A stretch of 64,000 bases of DNA. Source: a virus. The stretch is from IMG/VR virus record IMGVR_UViG_3300023174_000056, positions 96,001 through 160,000 of that record; one strand, given 5' to 3'. How positions within the stretch are numbered: position 1 is the first letter of the stretch; every line of letters starts with the position of its first letter. The notes beneath the pieces were generated by a model, which was given only the letters and a program-made list of their open reading frames with translations, was not told the DNA's origin and ran no database searches. The position numbers and the translations under genes are program-made. This document shows positions 40,372-63,998 of the stretch, in pieces.

Positions 40372-40953
40372 TTATTTAATCGCCTCTAATATTAAATCGC
40401 AAATTTGTTCTCTTGTTTCTAAATTTTTTAATTCTTCAAATTCGCTAATATTTTTATCTTTGAATGATATCACTTTAAAGCCTATATCTTTTAGTTTTTT
40501 TGTTATATCTTCTTTTGAATAGATAAATTTATGTCCGTCATTAGTGCTTGTTATATTGCTTAGGAACTTAATACTCTGTGATGTGCTGCTTTCGCCAAAG
40601 AAAGCAAAATTTAAGAACTGATCTTTTGATTTAAATCTTGAGAGATAAAGATGATTGTTCTTTTTTACATCCCAATTGTAATAAGTATTTAGAATTTCAT
40701 CAAGATATGGCATTGAAATTCTTAAAACACCCCCAACGCATAATTTATCGTAAAGATGTTTTAATAGATTAAAGCCGTCTACTTCGTCTAGATGCTCAAA
40801 AAAATGTTCAGAGAAAAAGAAAGATATAGAGTTATTTTCAAATGGCAGTGGCTTTCTTAAATCATGTTTGAAAATACCGGGAGAATCAATGTCATCAATA
40901 TTTATCCAGCCTTGATATATGTTTTTGCCACATCCTAAGTTTATCTTTAACAT
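40372..40953 (-). CDS. Class I SAM-dependent methyltransferase
   Basis: INLGCG..GWINID, DLR.PLPF, HFFEHL, L..GG.LRIS.P. Confidence 0.85.
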   Translation of the reverse strand: MLKINLGCGKNIYQGWINIDDIDSPGIFKHDLRKPLPFENNSISFFFSEHFFEHLDEVDGFNLLKHLYDKLCVGGVLRISMPYLDEILNTYYNWDVKKNNHLYLSRFKSKDQFLNFAFFGESSTSQSIKFLSNITSTNDGHKFIYSKEDITKKLKDIGFKVISFKDKNISEFEELKNLETREQICDLILEAIK

Positions 40954-54938: not shown

Positions 54939-55493
54939 CTAAAAATTTAAATTATTATTGGTATATTTAGTGACAAAATCGTTCATTATAATGCTACCAG
55001 CAACGGCAGCATTTAAAGAGCGTACAGAGCCATACTGCTGAATAAACACAAATCTATCACAAATTTCTATCGCTTCTTGTGTAAGTCCGACGCCTTCTTC
55101 GCCAAGAAGAAAAAGGACAGGCTTAGTATATTCAATCCTATCCAAACGGATAGCACCAGCAATAGTATTTTCAACACCAACAATTTCGTATTTTTCCTTC
55201 AACTCTAAAAGTTGTTCGTGTTTTTTTAGATGTATTACATCCGTATAATGGTGTGTGCCAACTGTGCCTCTACGGTCATAGTGTTTATTGCCAATGTAAT
55301 AAACTTCTTTCGCATTAAAACCATTTGCTGATCTTATCACAGATGATAAATTAAAATCACCAAGAAGATTCTCCATCGCAACTGCGTAAGGAAAGGCTTT
55401 AGACTGGAGATCTTTTTTAATTAATTCTGTTGTCCACTTAGTCAAACGATCATACTTGTACTTGTCTGAAATGTTACGGTTGTCTGTGTCCAT
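54939..55493 (-). CDS. SpoU/TrmH-family RNA 2'-O-ribose methyltransferase
   Basis: N....N..S..RSA..F, LGEEGVGL, I.QYG.VRSLN.AVA.SI (SPOUT motifs 1-3). Confidence 0.88.
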   Translation of the reverse strand: MDTDNRNISDKYKYDRLTKWTTELIKKDLQSKAFPYAVAMENLLGDFNLSSVIRSANGFNAKEVYYIGNKHYDRRGTVGTHHYTDVIHLKKHEQLLELKEKYEIVGVENTIAGAIRLDRIEYTKPVLFLLGEEGVGLTQEAIEICDRFVFIQQYGSVRSLNAAVAGSIIMNDFVTKYTNNNLNF

Positions 55494-56893: not shown

Positions 56894-56967
56894 TGGAGCA
56901 GCTAGTCGGATTCGAACCGACGAAACGAACTTGGAAGGATCGTGTGTTACCACTACACCATAGCTGC
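56894..56967 (-). tRNA. tRNA-Gly(UCC), encoded CCA
   Basis: GCAGCTA/TAGCTGC acceptor, U73, D-arm GTGT-AGTGGTA-ACAC, anticodon loop CTTCCAA, T-loop TTCGAAT. Confidence 0.95.
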
Positions 56968-57218: not shown

Positions 57219-57830
57219 CTATTCAATAATTTTGTCTACAAGACCATACTTGAGACAAGTTTTAGCATCAAAATATATATCACGTTTCAAGATATCTTTT
57301 AAGGTGTTTTTTGGAATTTTTGTATATTGACCATAAATTTCATAAATTTTATCCATAAAAACATTGCAATTTTGCATATCATCTTTCATGTCTTCAAATT
57401 TACCCCACATACCACCTGATAATTGGTGAATTAGCATAAAAGAATTTTTTGTGATACTTCTCTTTGGAGCCACAACACTTATAATAGTTCCAGCGCTGGC
57501 AGCACTGCCTTCAACGATAGAATGCACTGGGGCGTTGCTATTACGAATTACATCAACAGCAGCAAAACAATCAAGTAGAGAACCGCCTGGACTATTGATG
57601 TAAAGTTTAATGTCTGGCGGTGTGGGCCATTCAAAATGATTTTGAACAAAAATCAATTCTTTGCTTACACTACGCAATTGTTTATTAAGGTTTAAAATTG
57701 ATTTCTTAGTAACAGAAGAGTAAAAATAGATTGAATTATCTACTGTTTCAATTTCATTTAAATCTTCATCATCTTCGTCTGCGGACGGTTTTGTGGCTAA
57801 ATAAAAAGCATTTTTTGGTAATTTAGTCAT
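57219..57830 (-). CDS. clpP: ClpP-like serine protease
   Basis: I.LYINSPGGS, G.AASAG (catalytic Ser), MLIHQ (His), RD.YFDA...LKYGLVD.I. Confidence 0.85.
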   Translation of the reverse strand: MTKLPKNAFYLATKPSADEDDEDLNEIETVDNSIYFYSSVTKKSILNLNKQLRSVSKELIFVQNHFEWPTPPDIKLYINSPGGSLLDCFAAVDVIRNSNAPVHSIVEGSAASAGTIISVVAPKRSITKNSFMLIHQLSGGMWGKFEDMKDDMQNCNVFMDKIYEIYGQYTKIPKNTLKDILKRDIYFDAKTCLKYGLVDKIIE

Positions 57831-57844
57831 GGCAAGGCTCCAAT

Positions 57845-58132
57845 CTATGCCTTCATCTTACCCTTCTTATTTTTGCTTGTCAAGAGCTTTTCTTCAATTT
57901 CCTCAAGAGCAGCTTTTAATGATGGATCTACACGGCTTTTTACAACATACTGTTGACCACCTACACCTGATCGCTTAATTTTAACTTGATAAGTACCAGT
58001 CTTGTCTTGCGCTTTTACAGACTTCCGAAACGTATCCGCTTCTTCAAACGAAGCAAAATAACGTTCATTTTTCCAAGGCTCACCTTGAACTTGCTTTGTT
58101 GTCTCTTCCATTTTCCTACCCTCCTTCGTCAT
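57845..58132 (-). CDS. Hypothetical protein
   Basis: 95-aa ORF. A GGAGGG RBS supports the alternative start MEETT (58112). Confidence 0.55.
   Translation of the reverse strand: MTKEGRKMEETTKQVQGEPWKNERYFASFEEADTFRKSVKAQDKTGTYQVKIKRSGVGGQQYVVKSRVDPSLKAALEEIEEKLLTSKNKKGKMKA
57855..57883 (-). promoter_or_regulatory. sigma70 promoter for clpP
   Basis: TTGACA-17 bp-TAAGAT within the end of the upstream ORF. Confidence 0.7.
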
Positions 58133-58151
58133 TCCAGACGGCTATAAGAAC

Positions 58152-58180
58152 ACTCTATCAGACCTAAAATTTCTTGTAAA
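58152..58180 (-). promoter_or_regulatory. Putative sigma70 promoter
   Basis: TTTACA-17 bp-TAGAGT with an extended -10 TG. Confidence 0.55.
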
Positions 58181-58518
58181 GAACAAAATAACAGGCGTGT
58201 TATTACACTAAAGCGGAATCTCATTGCATCGCAGAATTCACCTTTTTATCGGTTACTCCACGTCTTCTGGATCTCCACGCCGATACGTTTCTCCTATTCC
58301 CTAACCACCCCGACCTATGATAGATTGCGCCTTACCTAATACGAGGATCTTATGGAGATCGCTCAAATATTACACTTAGTTATTTAAGGGTTTCGTATAA
58401 TATTATTCGGGCTTTTAGCATAGACGCCTTTTCACAAGATTTCTATCTGCACTAGTGGATTTTGCCGCACTCTTTAAAAGATGGCTACCTTTAAGCCAAC
58501 TTCCCGATTATTTTGTTC
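58181..58518 (-). ncRNA. 338-nt structured RNA whose ends form a 23S rRNA H42-H44 (L11-binding, GTPase-associated centre) mimic around a 260-nt insert
   Basis: 11-bp terminal helix GAACAAAATAA/TTATTTTGTTC. 5' part ATCGGGAAGTTGGCTTAAAGGTAGCCATCTTTTAAAGAGT aligns to E. coli 23S 1051-1090. 3' part GTGTAATAACACGCCTGT aligns to 1091-1108. Compensatory changes are present and the RNA has its own promoter. Confidence 0.8.
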
Positions 58519-58527
58519 GTAGATACA

Positions 58528-58570
58528 AGTATGCCACAGAGACTCGGTGTTGTCAAGTCTTCTGTGGCAT
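58528..58570 (-). promoter_or_regulatory. sigma70 promoter embedded in an inverted repeat (drives the rRNA-mimic RNA)
   Basis: TTGACA-17 bp-CATACT with TGn, inside ATGCCACAGAAGAC...GTCTCTGTGGCAT. Confidence 0.7.
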
Positions 58571-58575
58571 TTAGT

Positions 58576-58865
58576 TGGTGGAGGATTTGGGTATCGAACC
58601 CAAGTCTTACAGTCTTTTGTACAAAGTCATTCACAGGATTAGTAGAGTCGTCTACACGTATTACATTTTATTACAGTCTATTACAATTTGCAACTTTCTG
58701 TTTCTAGGCAGTTGCCGCCCAAGAATTACGCTGCTAGAGCGTAGGATTCAAACTCAACGTCTTCGTTGGCTTTTATTGTTTTGTAACATTTATTAGAGTC
58801 TGTTGTGTTACGCAGACTTCCCGCACTTTATATTTCTCTACCGTAATCGAATCCAGTTATCCCCC
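58576..58865 (-). ncRNA. ssrA: tmRNA, 290 nt, tag peptide ANEDVEFESYALAA
   Basis: GGGGGAT/ATCCTCC-A-CCA acceptor with G3:U. 5' GGATTCGA motif. T-arm TTGGG-TTCGATA-CCCAA. PK1 (AGTCTG/CAGACT with GTAACA/TGTTAC). Tag ORF at 58770-58726 ending YALAA*. Confidence 0.95.
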
Positions 58866-61238: not shown

Positions 61239-63998
61239 TTATGTTTCCTCTTCTGTTTCGTGCGATTTAAAAGTACGCATTCCACCAGCAACATCACCAG
61301 AACCCATCGCTGACATTTCTTTTAATTTTTTAAAATAACGAACTTGGGTTTCTTCAGATTGCTGTTTTTTATTAAATCTAAAATATCCGATTTTATTTCC
61401 AGTCTTTTTTGAAATTAAACGATACTTGCTTTCGTTAACTAATGAAAGAATTATTTCTTGTAACTCGCCTGGCATTCTTTCTTTCATAATATTATATACT
61501 ATTTCATATTGTTTTTTAGCAGAAGAAGAAATTTTTGCTGGTGAGATTTCTTTAAGCCATTGTTCAAATGTAACATTTGGATCTTTAATCATAGCTCTAG
61601 ATTTTTTACCACTAAATATTCTTGGAGTCTCTATAAATTCAAGATTTATTTGACCAGTTTTTTTATCTAAATCAAGTGGAAGAAAATCGTGATCTGTCAT
61701 AAATTTTTCTATATTAAATCTTTTAACAATATCTTGATAGCCAGCAATTCTGTCGTCTCCAGCTAACCATCCAACTATTATAAATTTTTTCTTTGAACAA
61801 ATATCTATAACGCTAAAAGCATTTAATGGATTTTGTTCTACAATTTCAATTTGTGGATCAGAGCCATAAAGAGAATTTATAAGGTTTAATTGTTCTTTTT
61901 CATTTAAAGGATTTTCAGCTAAATCTTTACTTGATTTTCCGCCCTTAACTACCATAATAACAATTTTTTCTGCCTTTAAGGTTGATAATTTCTTTTTACC
62001 CAATTGAATCATTGCATCATGGCCTTTGTGCCAAGGCTGGGCTCTGCCATTCCAAACAATAACTCTTGTACCTTTAGTTGTATCCATTTCTTTTTTCTCT
62101 GGCTCTTGAGATGTATTCAATAATGGCTCTAATTTAGCGCCATAATATTTCTGCAATACCAATAAATACTTTTTATCGTTTGAAGATCTTGAAGTACCTA
62201 TTATTTCGTAGTCATTCAACAAAATAGTTAAATTATTAACATAATCAATAGATTTTCGTTCTGAATCTCTATCTAAAATACTTTTTTTAGATTTAATAGA
62301 TTTTGTTATACTTTTAACTTCTTCTCTTGCTTTACCTATAGCGATATTAAGATTTTTTTCTAAATTATTTAAAGCTTGTTCATAATTTGGGACAAGAGAT
62401 GCAACGGCTTGCTGTAGGGTCGCATTATTTTGCTTAATACTGTTTTCAAGAGTTGTTAATATATTTTTATCTGTTGTACTTGGTAAAGATAAAATAACTT
62501 TTTTTACAGAAGTTAAAAATTCATCTTTTACATTTTCAGAATTTTTTCTATCTTCCCAAACCACTTTAGCATTTTCAGCAAATTTTTGTGAAGTTCCTTT
62601 TACTTCAAACACTTCACCATCTTTAGCTTTTATTCTTAAAACAACTCCCTCTACGTTTGAATCTTTATCACCAAGCTTAGAAGAAACAGCATCTGCATAT
62701 TTATTTAATATATTCTGTAGTTTTGTTCGTACAGAATTCATTTTTTCTATTAATTTATCTTTTTCAGAATTTTGTTTTCTACTTTTTAATATATTAATAG
62801 CTTCTTCAAATTTTTCTGGTTTTAAATATTCAGCCAAATCTCCTAGTTCAAATGGTATAACTCCTGGAAGTCTCATGTCGTCGTCATTTGAATAAATTTT
62901 CCATTCCTGCTCAAAACCAGAAGAAAGCTTTTTAAAATTAGATATTATTTCAGAGCTAACGGCTGGTTCTGGCCTTACCCAATCATTTTTTTCTTCGCTC
63001 CACTTTGAGCATTTAAAAATAACTGACCCTCCAAATTTTCCAAACTTGTCTTTTTTGTATCTTGTAGAAGCAAATACAACATCTCCAGATTTGCTTCCTT
63101 GATGCGTAAATACTGGAAACATTTCTGAATCAAATCTTACTGGTCCATACGTTTTATAAATTTGTTGGAGGGCTGATTGAAATTTTTTATTATCATGCAA
63201 ATAAGTAAAAGAGTCGATTGATTCTTTTCTAAAACCAAAAACTTGTTGTGCATTATCAGCAGTAACTTCTCCGCTGTAGTTTGATTCCATAAAAAACTTT
63301 CCATCTTTATTGATGCCAAAATGAATAAATGAGGCATCCATTTTTTCAACCATATCAACCGATGGATCGCTCAACAAATCAATTTTAAAACTTTCTTTTT
63401 TTGTATTTCCAGTTTCTTCTCTTAATTTTTTTAATAAAGTTAAAAATTCAACTGGGCTAAATTCATTTTTTCCACTAAAACGGCCAATAGACTCTCTGCC
63501 TTCGTTAAGCATGGATTCTTTAAATAATTCTTGATATTCGCCTGATTGTAACATCTCTAGTTGTTCTGGGGTTAGTGTTTCTTTTACTTTTTTAATAATG
63601 TCTTCTCTATATTTTGCATACTTGTTATTGTAATATTTATTATTAAGAAAAGCATCCATAACTTTTTCAAAAGAGTTTACTTTTTCCCAAGTATAACCTG
63701 GGCCAAATAACCAAGCAGCCATCTCATCTTGATTTTCTAAGAAATGTTCTCTTTTTACGGATATTTTTTTAGGATTTTTTTGTCTTTTGTTTAATGGATC
63801 TGGGTTTGCAATTCTTGTTACAACTTTCTCGACACCAGATTTAAAATTTAAAACATATTTATGCTCTTCAAATTCACCTTGTGGAAATTCTTCAGTAGCT
63901 ATAGGTTTTGTATTTTTTCTATCAACTGTTGAAATAATTGAACCGAGAAGAACATTTCTAAAAGCCGCCTTAAAATTACTACCTTCTGGTTTTCCAGA
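61239..63998 (-). CDS. Multidomain protein (5'-truncated): RNA-ligase-like nucleotidyltransferase plus HxGH cytidylyltransferase/NMNAT-like domain
   Basis: The frame is open from the track start (63722) to the window end. Ligase-like motifs VEKMDAS, FDSEM, EGVVLR, EVKG. Later GRAQPWHKGH, ENPL...E, AGDDR, FSG..SR. Confidence 0.65.
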   Translation of the reverse strand, partial: SGKPEGSNFKAAFRNVLLGSIISTVDRKNTKPIATEEFPQGEFEEHKYVLNFKSGVEKVVTRIANPDPLNKRQKNPKKISVKREHFLENQDEMAAWLFGPGYTWEKVNSFEKVMDAFLNNKYYNNKYAKYREDIIKKVKETLTPEQLEMLQSGEYQELFKESMLNEGRESIGRFSGKNEFSPVEFLTLLKKLREETGNTKKESFKIDLLSDPSVDMVEKMDASFIHFGINKDGKFFMESNYSGEVTADNAQQVFGFRKESIDSFTYLHDNKKFQSALQQIYKTYGPVRFDSEMFPVFTHQGSKSGDVVFASTRYKKDKFGKFGGSVIFKCSKWSEEKNDWVRPEPAVSSEIISNFKKLSSGFEQEWKIYSNDDDMRLPGVIPFELGDLAEYLKPEKFEEAINILKSRKQNSEKDKLIEKMNSVRTKLQNILNKYADAVSSKLGDKDSNVEGVVLRIKAKDGEVFEVKGTSQKFAENAKVVWEDRKNSENVKDEFLTSVKKVILSLPSTTDKNILTTLENSIKQNNATLQQAVASLVPNYEQALNNLEKNLNIAIGKAREEVKSITKSIKSKKSILDRDSERKSIDYVNNLTILLNDYEIIGTSRSSNDKKYLLVLQKYYGAKLEPLLNTSQEPEKKEMDTTKGTRVIVWNGRAQPWHKGHDAMIQLGKKKLSTLKAEKIVIMVVKGGKSSKDLAENPLNEKEQLNLINSLYGSDPQIEIVEQNPLNAFSVIDICSKKKFIIVGWLAGDDRIAGYQDIVKRFNIEKFMTDHDFLPLDLDKKTGQINLEFIETPRIFSGKKSRAMIKDPNVTFEQWLKEISPAKISSSAKKQYEIVYNIMKERMPGELQEIILSLVNESKYRLISKKTGNKIGYFRFNKKQQSEETQVRYFKKLKEMSAMGSGDVAGGMRTFKSHETEEET

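Follow-up and report, generated by a model that had tools for sequence, protein, structure and literature searches.

The window, i.e. the whole stretch of 64,000 nt analyzed here, comprises bases 96001-160000 of a 168,144-bp IMG/VR virus record (IMGVR_UViG_3300023174_000056; 34.6% GC, estimated 92% complete). On its minus strand, at positions 58518-58181, lies a candidate RNA of 338 nt, present in the genome in a single copy. No ORF of 40 or more amino acids is contained entirely in this segment, and two ORFs (47 and 64 aa) reach into it only at its 5' end, 58491-58518. The gene of a phage tmRNA is found 57 nt upstream on the same strand. The neighbouring genes include those for a GH19 endolysin, an 88-aa ORF, a ClpP-like prohead protease, a TrmH-like SpoU methylase and adenylosuccinate lyase, and a PIN-PhoH gene; the 88-aa ORF, without assigned function, and then the prohead protease follow the element on its downstream side. 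The coordinates of the main features are collected in Table 1. The tmRNA tag ends with YALAA, a ClpXP-type degron, and the gene of the ClpP-family protease is located about 750 nt away.

A sigma70 promoter belonging to the RNA itself had been proposed in an earlier note on this DNA. A site of this type is indeed present upstream, matching the consensus only (Table 1), and the window's copy seems to have its own sigma70-like promoter, from which transcription would start approximately 3 nt 5' of the terminal helix. A comparable TTGACA/TG site is located upstream of the tmRNA, at 58911-58883. No terminator was found 3' of the element. In a simple scan, the H43 hairpin followed by UCUUUUAAAG, at 58482-58498 (-), resembles a terminator; as this hairpin belongs to the conserved module described below, some transcription could stop prematurely within the element. 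The predicted fold of the whole RNA has the energy of -88.1 kcal/mol (z = -2.07 versus shuffled sequences).

Table 1. Positions of the element, its parts and neighbouring features in the window (GAC, GTPase-associated centre; numbers of the form 1051-1108 are E. coli 23S rRNA positions).
Feature	Position	Strand	Description
Promoter-like site	58528..58556	(-)	TTGACA, 17-nt spacer, CATACT with TG extension; consensus match only
Terminal helix, 5' arm	58508..58518	(-)	GAACAAAAUAA; extends H42; last pair corresponds to 1051-1108
GAC 5' half	58469..58508	(-)	corresponds to 1051-1090; R1 model positions 1-46
Insert	58209..58468	(-)	260 nt, between 1090 and 1091
Insert closing stem, 5' strand	58465..58468	(-)	GCGG
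Insert closing stem, 3' strand	58213..58216	(-)	CCGC
Linker	58209..58212	(-)	UUUA
GAC 3' half	58191..58208	(-)	corresponds to 1091-1108; H44 hairpin with GUAAUA loop (A1095), H42 3' strand
Terminal helix, 3' arm	58181..58191	(-)	UUAUUUUGUUC; pairs with 58518-58508
Phage tmRNA gene	58576..58865	(-)	Rfam 73.9 bits; tag ANEDVEFESYALAA
tRNA-Gly(UCC)	56894..56967	(-)	1.2 kb downstream of the element, same strand
ClpP-family protease gene	57219..57830	(-)	Pfam CLP_protease, 105 bits; head-maturation protease in PHROGs and NCBIfam
SpoU-family gene	54939..55493	(-)	184 aa
Gene of 827-aa protein	61239..63722	(-)	faint cytidylyltransferase-like match (PF01467, 20 bits, below cut-off); otherwise unannotated

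The two ends of the RNA resemble the GAC of 23S rRNA. The sequences used for comparison were real E. coli rrl copies (L244 and L245), reached via another member of the family; the 5' half from the window itself gave no match to E. coli at E 1e-3. Without gaps, 58508-58469 is identical to E. coli 1051-1090 in 30 of 40 positions and 58208-58191 to 1091-1108 in 12 of 18, which agrees with the alignment given in the earlier note, while the best 40-mer elsewhere (18 kb of other window sequence, both strands) reaches 23 of 40. The 5' half contains the top of H42, H43 with the 1067 loop, the 1082-1086 turn and G1087-U1090. In a local search, the Rfam model of the bacterial LSU rRNA (RF02541) aligns 58514-58448 to H42-H44 with 25.2 bits (E 7.8e-6), as compared to the gathering score of 50; the match is limited to model positions 1086-1152, and no LSU rRNA match was found in the window at the gathering level. 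The likeness to rRNA ends exactly at 1051 and 1108, where the flanks pair with each other, so that the 11-bp terminal helix seen earlier in this sequence (58518-58508/58191-58181) is complete, with 11 of 11 pairs.

The two rrl copies are themselves not uniform in this region. The copy from NZ_AP024560.1 (L245:140-160) lacks four nucleotides (AAAG) in the 1087-1090 region of H44, and the one from NZ_CP048603.1 (L244:1297-1302) reads CGUG, not GCCA, at 1051-1054; these differences are operon variants or assembly errors within the GAC.

Compared to the rrl copies, the element has A-U in place of U1058-A1080, G-C in place of A1054-U1105 and U-A in place of A1090-U1101, while the tertiary triple C1072.(C1092-G1099) is replaced by U.(U-A). 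All these substitutions had already been described as compensatory, and all are present; the retention of A1067 and A1095 in the window's copy was likewise confirmed. Among the irregularities of this copy are G1103, which yields G1056.G1103 and is rare (3/87 elements among the matches listed), and a C1053.U1106 mismatch in H42.

Thus, the helices and the 1082-1086 turn are the same as in the 23S GAC (E. coli 1051-1108, the 58-nt domain that binds uL11 and thiostrepton), U1060, G1071 and A1088 are shared, the 1067 and 1095 loops are present, and the 1072.(1092-1099) triple covaries. The differences concern the setting and a number of characteristic positions. The GAC sits within a 2.9-kb rRNA, whereas the phage element is a stand-alone gene with its own closing helix; moreover, the phage family is split after 1090 by an insert of 24-367 nt followed by a UUUR linker, and has the signature G1089, U1090-A1101 and GCACAC (GCUCAC in rRNA), with A1067, 1096 and 1097 relaxed. 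At the level of the predicted structure, the comparison shows that the two helix-closed ends have the same secondary and tertiary architecture as the 58-nt GAC domain (the top of H42, H43 and H44).

Homologues were found both in cultured phages and in metagenomic viruses. In a blastn search against cultured phages, the 5' half matched a site 31 nt upstream of tRNA-Met in Aeromonas phage 4_4572, in a gap lacking annotation. This copy has the closing helix, the GAC 5' half and an H44-like 3' half, the triple in its C.(C-G) form, and a 222-nt insert whose closing stem covaries (GGGA/UCCC). A scan of IMG/VR anchored on the H43 module yielded at least 119 loci. Among the matches listed, none was contiguous 23S, and 82 of 85 distinct elements had a matching 3' half (family consensus CUUUGGYGUAAYARCACAC) and a closing helix, the other three being broken off at contig ends. 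A second scan, anchored on the 3' half alone and hence unbiased with respect to H43, yielded at least 120 loci, and the two scans together gave at least 142 distinct split elements with inserts of 24-367 nt. In bacterial and archaeal genomes (596 Gb), the 3'-half pattern was encountered at just 21 loci, almost exclusively on MAG contigs, which points to a family confined to phage DNA. Confirmed cultured carriers are Cronobacter phage GAP32 and Xanthomonas phage XacN1; Pseudomonas phage pf16 (L073) is a putative one, and blast matches suggest further candidates, namely Pseudomonas phages Astolliot and Milchi and Rak2-like jumbo phages of Erwinia, Serratia, Pectobacterium and Yersinia.

The match in Paenibacillus phage Pd_22F (L123, MZ092003.1, about 83.9-84.0 kb) is not a member of the family, being ordinary contiguous 23S at a place without annotation; its source is either rRNA captured from a host or host DNA included in the assembly.

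A covariance model, R1, was built from alignment A2, which consists of 39 short-insert members and excludes the window. R1 scores the window with 75.7 bits (E 1.9e-21) at 58514-58185 (-), spanning model positions 1-158 of 158 and placing the insert at the expected site. A second match, at 40571-40741 (8.1 bits, E 0.66), lies within a 193-aa ORF and was taken as chance. The window's copy has the complete split layout (1051-1090, a stem-closed 260-nt insert, the UUUR linker, 1091-1108 and the closing helix), as well as the U1090-A1101 pair and a coherent U.(U-A) triple. Hence 58518-58181 (-) belongs over its full length to an RNA family widespread in phages. No family of Rfam 15 covers the split element in the window or at 16 other loci. 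Neither a 23S, uL11 or GAC look-alike in phages nor any phage mimic of an rRNA domain is described in the full-text literature searched, including the structured-RNA surveys PMC10690425 and PMC5737381, although unnamed candidates in supplements may hide one.

Covariation was assessed both over the collected elements and on A2. Among the 87 elements in the matches listed, 1058-1080 is a Watson-Crick pair in all 87 (A-U 21, G-C 33, U-A 29, C-G 4), 1054-1105 pairs in all 87 and 1055-1104 in 86; these are the positions left free by the first search pattern. In the same 87 elements from the matches listed, both U1090-A1101 and a coherent triple are found in 84, the state of 1072.(1092-1099) being C.(C-G) in 63, U.(U-A) in 21 and off-pattern in 3 (Fisher p 3.7e-20). 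The U.(U-A) state is encountered in 16 of 46 insert lineages, and more than one state in 4 of the 10 lineages with multiple members (among the matches listed), so the triple has switched many times. In the 3'-anchored set, again among the matches listed, covariation is seen at 1082-1086 (U-A 34, C-G 19, A-U 9) and 1057-1081 (A-U 63, C-G 6, G-C 1).

For A2, the structure consisting of the rRNA-derived pairs and the insert closing stem was written onto the alignment columns. Pairing is retained in 94.1% of cells, compared to 70.2% in shuffled alignments and 35-55% when the structure is slid, and 19 of 25 pairs change on both sides among the 39 members. In particular, all 9 pairs of the family closing helix (helix 1) and all 4 pairs of the insert closing stem (helix 5) vary on both sides. 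The covariation score is 0.637 versus 0.168 and was reached by none of 500 shuffles. The collection of homologues and the covariation check suggested in the earlier note thus support its central claim, made from a single sequence: with secondary pairs and the base triple covarying in a family of at least 142 distinct elements, the data strongly support a selected rRNA mimic rather than decayed rRNA.

A non-functional origin would mean captured or decaying rRNA, host contamination, an rRNA exon bearing an intron, or a relative of the large phage RNAs GOLLD or ROOL. The identity of H43 to 23S is high, and one phage record, Pd_22F, does carry ordinary 23S, and these two observations speak for such an origin. 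On the other hand, the likeness stops at 1051 and 1108 with mutually pairing flanks, the covariation and the recurrence in at least 142 distinct elements show selection, and the family has its own signature (U1090-A1101, GCACAC instead of GCUCAC). In addition, these fixed differences from rRNA, together with G1089 and the UUUR linker, indicate that the family is a lineage of its own and not a result of repeated host captures. As for introns, no group I or group II match was found in 58100-58600 with Rfam at E up to 10, and relatives have inserts of 24-47 nt, much below the length that an intron would need. GOLLD (RF01998) and ROOL (RF03087) are also phage-borne, located near tRNAs, large, structured and ornate, and kinship with them had been considered possible. 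This suggestion did not hold: neither matches 58100-58600 at E up to 10, where the only Rfam match is the sub-threshold LSU one, nor any part of the window at the gathering level, and there is no Rfam family on the 16 other loci. To our knowledge, GOLLD and ROOL contain no rRNA-like module. The exact boundaries, covariation, recurrence, signature and Rfam negatives thus refute the reading as a non-functional remnant, and we consider it extremely improbable.

The earlier note described the RNA as built around one ornate insert, which is too specific for the family. The insert departs from the domain at the H44 junction, and its exit site is constant across the family, through a covarying stem, while the inserts themselves belong to many unrelated classes (among the matches listed). 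The shortest ones, of 24-47 nt, are bare hairpins, with the entire GAC retained; hence the GAC module seems to be under selection in its own right, and the shell needs no large insert. Known RNA families were found neither in the inserts of 16 loci nor in that of the Aeromonas phage copy.

The largest insert class comprises 18 elements, that of the Aeromonas phage among them, and is characterized by a 3' module CACCCCG-NNNN-YGGUAAGGC, which is absent from the window. This module (L001:3225-3262 and 17 other inserts, e.g. L006, L108 and L003) comprises a 3-bp hairpin, a GNRA-like loop and a UAA bulge; its closing pair covaries (G-C, A-U, G.U), and it is located just 5' of the insert closing stem.

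Enclosed by the closing stem, the interior of the window's insert is lineage-specific. The viral and metagenome scans yielded only two groups of relatives among the matches listed: L025, L126 and L127, about 98% identical, and L069 and L125. The inserts of the window and L069 have long conserved blocks in common; with L069 as the single diverged relative, covariation in the insert is provisional. Five stems had been predicted in this insert, and all of them are complementary in the window. In L069, the closing stem GCGG/CCGC is replaced by GAGA/UCUC, with compensation, and the AU 10-bp hairpin is swapped for an unrelated hairpin at the same site, whereas CCCGA/UCGGG, UAUCGG/CCGAUA and the 9-bp pseudoknot pairing are non-complementary. 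RNAalifold instead suggests a CUU/AGG hairpin and the long-range stems CCACU/GGUGG and GAUAGA/UCUAUC; a single compensatory change supports each of them, and these stems are provisional.

Such inserts could themselves be the working part of the RNA, the GAC fold, with or without a uL11 cap, serving as a clamp or scaffold that closes it in a stable and nuclease-resistant manner. This would be consistent with the conserved blocks inside the insert classes (the 18-member class; the window and L069) and with the insert exit being fixed at one site via a covarying stem. However, members with inserts of 24-47 nt retain the whole GAC, and, since simpler clamps are plentiful, the choice of an rRNA domain, reproduced down to a base triple, would be left without explanation. 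We therefore regard a purely structural role as unlikely.

The distribution of conserved positions within the module points to a particular face of the domain. On the ribosome, uL11 matters for RelA activation. It also matters for the EF-G GTPase and for RF1-dependent termination, and its C-terminal domain contacts nucleotides 1058-1060, 1062-1065, 1075-1083 and 1088 (PMC1802607). Across the family, the uL11-contact positions are invariant or covarying (among the matches listed). In particular, in the 3'-anchored set, unbiased with respect to H43, G1059, U1060, G1063 and A1077 are each found in 75/75 elements and A1088 in 70/75 among the matches listed; the count of 75/75 also holds for G1071. 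The window's copy has, at the sequence level, both the determinants of the fold and the nucleotides contacting the C-terminal domain according to the list in PMC1802607. A self-contained, ion-stabilised fold serving only as a structural clamp would show the same conservation.

The loop positions behave differently. A1067 is a contact of thiostrepton, EF-G and the tRNA elbow (PMC1802607, PMC5829649): thiostrepton contacts A1067 and A1095 (PMC1802607), and the A/R-site tRNA has its elbow in a stacking contact with A1067 (PMC5829649). In the 3'-anchored set, this position is A in only 56/75 elements (G 15, C 3, U 1) among the matches listed. Positions 1096 and 1097 also vary across the family (1096: A 64, G 21; 1097: C 44, U 30, A 13; among the matches listed). 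With the uL11 face kept and A1067, 1096 and 1097 relaxed, selection weighs more heavily on the fold and the uL11 face than on the contacts with factors and antibiotics. The RNA might nevertheless imitate the site for its ligands directly, alone or together with uL11, the candidates being EF-G, EF-Tu, RelA, release factors, the tRNA elbow and thiopeptide antibiotics, all of which are contacted by the GAC on the ribosome; both A1067 and A1095 are present in the window's copy. The relaxation at A1067, replaced in 25% of elements (mostly by G, among the matches listed), and at the freely varying 1096/1097 argues against direct binding of EF-G, the tRNA elbow or thiostrepton as the property under selection, to the extent that it can be judged from conservation. 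Moreover, nothing visible in the insert corresponds to the sarcin-ricin loop, which makes up the other half of the factor site. Direct mimicry of this kind seems quite improbable.

The genomic setting of the family is that of phage stable RNAs. Among the matches listed, a tRNA or tmRNA gene is located within 500 nt of 59/87 elements, always on the same strand (59/59) and often only 6-16 nt away, and the window, with its tmRNA and tRNA-Gly on the minus strand, belongs to the same type. In this respect, the niche and the strand of the element match those of phage tRNAs, tmRNA and tRNA-like stable RNAs. From this adjacency we infer that most elements are probably released from tRNA-array transcripts by the processing of tRNA ends.

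No protein partner is visible on the phage side. Using Pfam, we found no uL11, bL12, RelA/SpoT or bS21 in the phage genome, and clustering of 1838 neighbouring ORFs revealed no recurrent partner family at more than 10 of 141 loci, the top clusters being HNH, DNA methylase, HTH, TerD, DUF2828/DUF7788 and RNA ligase. Any partner should therefore be a host component.

The SpoU-family gene near the element could have been linked to it as a Tsr/Nhr-like methylase of A1067. It is closest to TrmH (NCBIfam, PDB sequence search), and no SpoU gene is located near other elements among the matches listed, so this link was rejected. TrmH is the tRNA Gm18 enzyme, and the 184-aa protein is likely a phage tRNA-modifying 2'-O-methyltransferase of the SpoU family.

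The location within tRNA arrays can also be read in terms of defence, as such arrays are often seen as an answer to tRNA-targeting systems. The RNA would then be a decoy for a host-defence or competitor toxin that modifies or cleaves H43/H44 of the GAC, in parallel with phage tRNAs that compensate for anticodon nucleases. A toxin with this target exists: Tre23 ADP-ribosylates H44 of 23S at 1095-1098 and blocks the EF-G GTPase (PMC8661411), although it is a T6SS effector. RNA ligase or repair genes are found near some members (XacN1 and the RNA_ligase cluster), but they are not linked to the family consistently. We know of no anti-phage system directed at the GAC. Moreover, the loop bases available for recognition (1067, 1096 and 1097) show the lowest conservation within the mimic, and a toxin decoy is, in our estimate, an unlikely explanation.

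Taken together, the sequence data suggest that the RNA probably acts off the ribosome as an imitation of the uL11/GTPase site. The specific version that we prefer, a free mimic that would bind uL11 and titrate or hold the host protein, has in our judgement an about even chance of being correct; the preference comes from the conservation pattern, the lack of a phage partner and the predicted co-production with abundant stable RNAs. [quoted passage not shown] An abundant decoy would then divert uL11 that is newly synthesized or exchangeable from the 50S subunits, and the uL11-dependent steps, such as RelA activation with the stringent response, RF1-dependent termination and the tuning of factor GTPases, would be altered to the benefit of the phage. 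The insert would be an accessory module whose role may differ between lineages. The broader claim, that phages reprogram host ribosomes by means of such an RNA, with uL11 stripped or withheld and the ribosomes becoming RelA-blind, weak in RF1-dependent termination and altered in GTPase tuning, is more doubtful, and we put it forward only tentatively.

RNAs that copy an rRNA protein-binding site off the ribosome are known from the leaders of ribosomal protein mRNAs (L10, L1), so the binding of a free ribosomal protein is the expected activity of such an RNA. The leaders, however, are cis-regulatory, belong to cellular ribosomal protein operons and imitate local motifs, whereas the phage RNA is trans-encoded and comprises a whole tertiary domain; in the window, no ribosomal protein gene is located near the element. 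We know of no uL11 leader that copies the GAC. Known phage genes for components of translation encode tRNAs, tmRNA and some ribosomal proteins. Neither Rfam 15 nor the literature searched contains a stand-alone gene whose RNA copies a functional domain of rRNA faithfully in its tertiary structure. A phage RNA mimic is known in the pseudo-ToxI of phage PhiTE (PMC3475682), and the logic is common, a phage look-alike of a host or defence RNA, the difference being that the element copies rRNA and not a tRNA or an antitoxin RNA.

If the element does bind uL11, it would represent the first case of a viral RNA acting as a sponge for a ribosomal protein, and would offer a new way of controlling the stringent response or termination; such sponges might then be a general tool of phage take-over, to which the variable inserts might add lineage-specific partners. 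A toxin decoy, if true, would point to undiscovered GAC-directed defences. In any case, the family is a natural experiment on the GAC fold, providing hundreds of independent variants and an insertion site tolerated by the fold, and, owing to its presence in cultured tractable phages (GAP32, XacN1, Aeromonas 4_4572 and, putatively, pf16), the effect of a free GAC in an infected cell is directly testable.

Several other features of the surrounding loci were observed. In XacN1 (L124:531-1181), the element is directly 3' of a gene annotated as 2'-5' RNA ligase, and the Pfam RNA_ligase family is found near four other elements (representative L047:4836-5939). A link to recoding is without support, as suppressor-type tRNAs (ARAGORN) are found at only 7/87 loci among the matches listed, a count with no background for comparison; the anticodon is CUA at L012, L029, L035, L040, L085 and L121, and UCA at L022. 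At one of these loci (L121:6062-6099, minus strand), an abiF RNA (RF03085, 41.6 bits) is located inside a phage array of 24 tRNAs that also contains a tmRNA and a GAC-like element.
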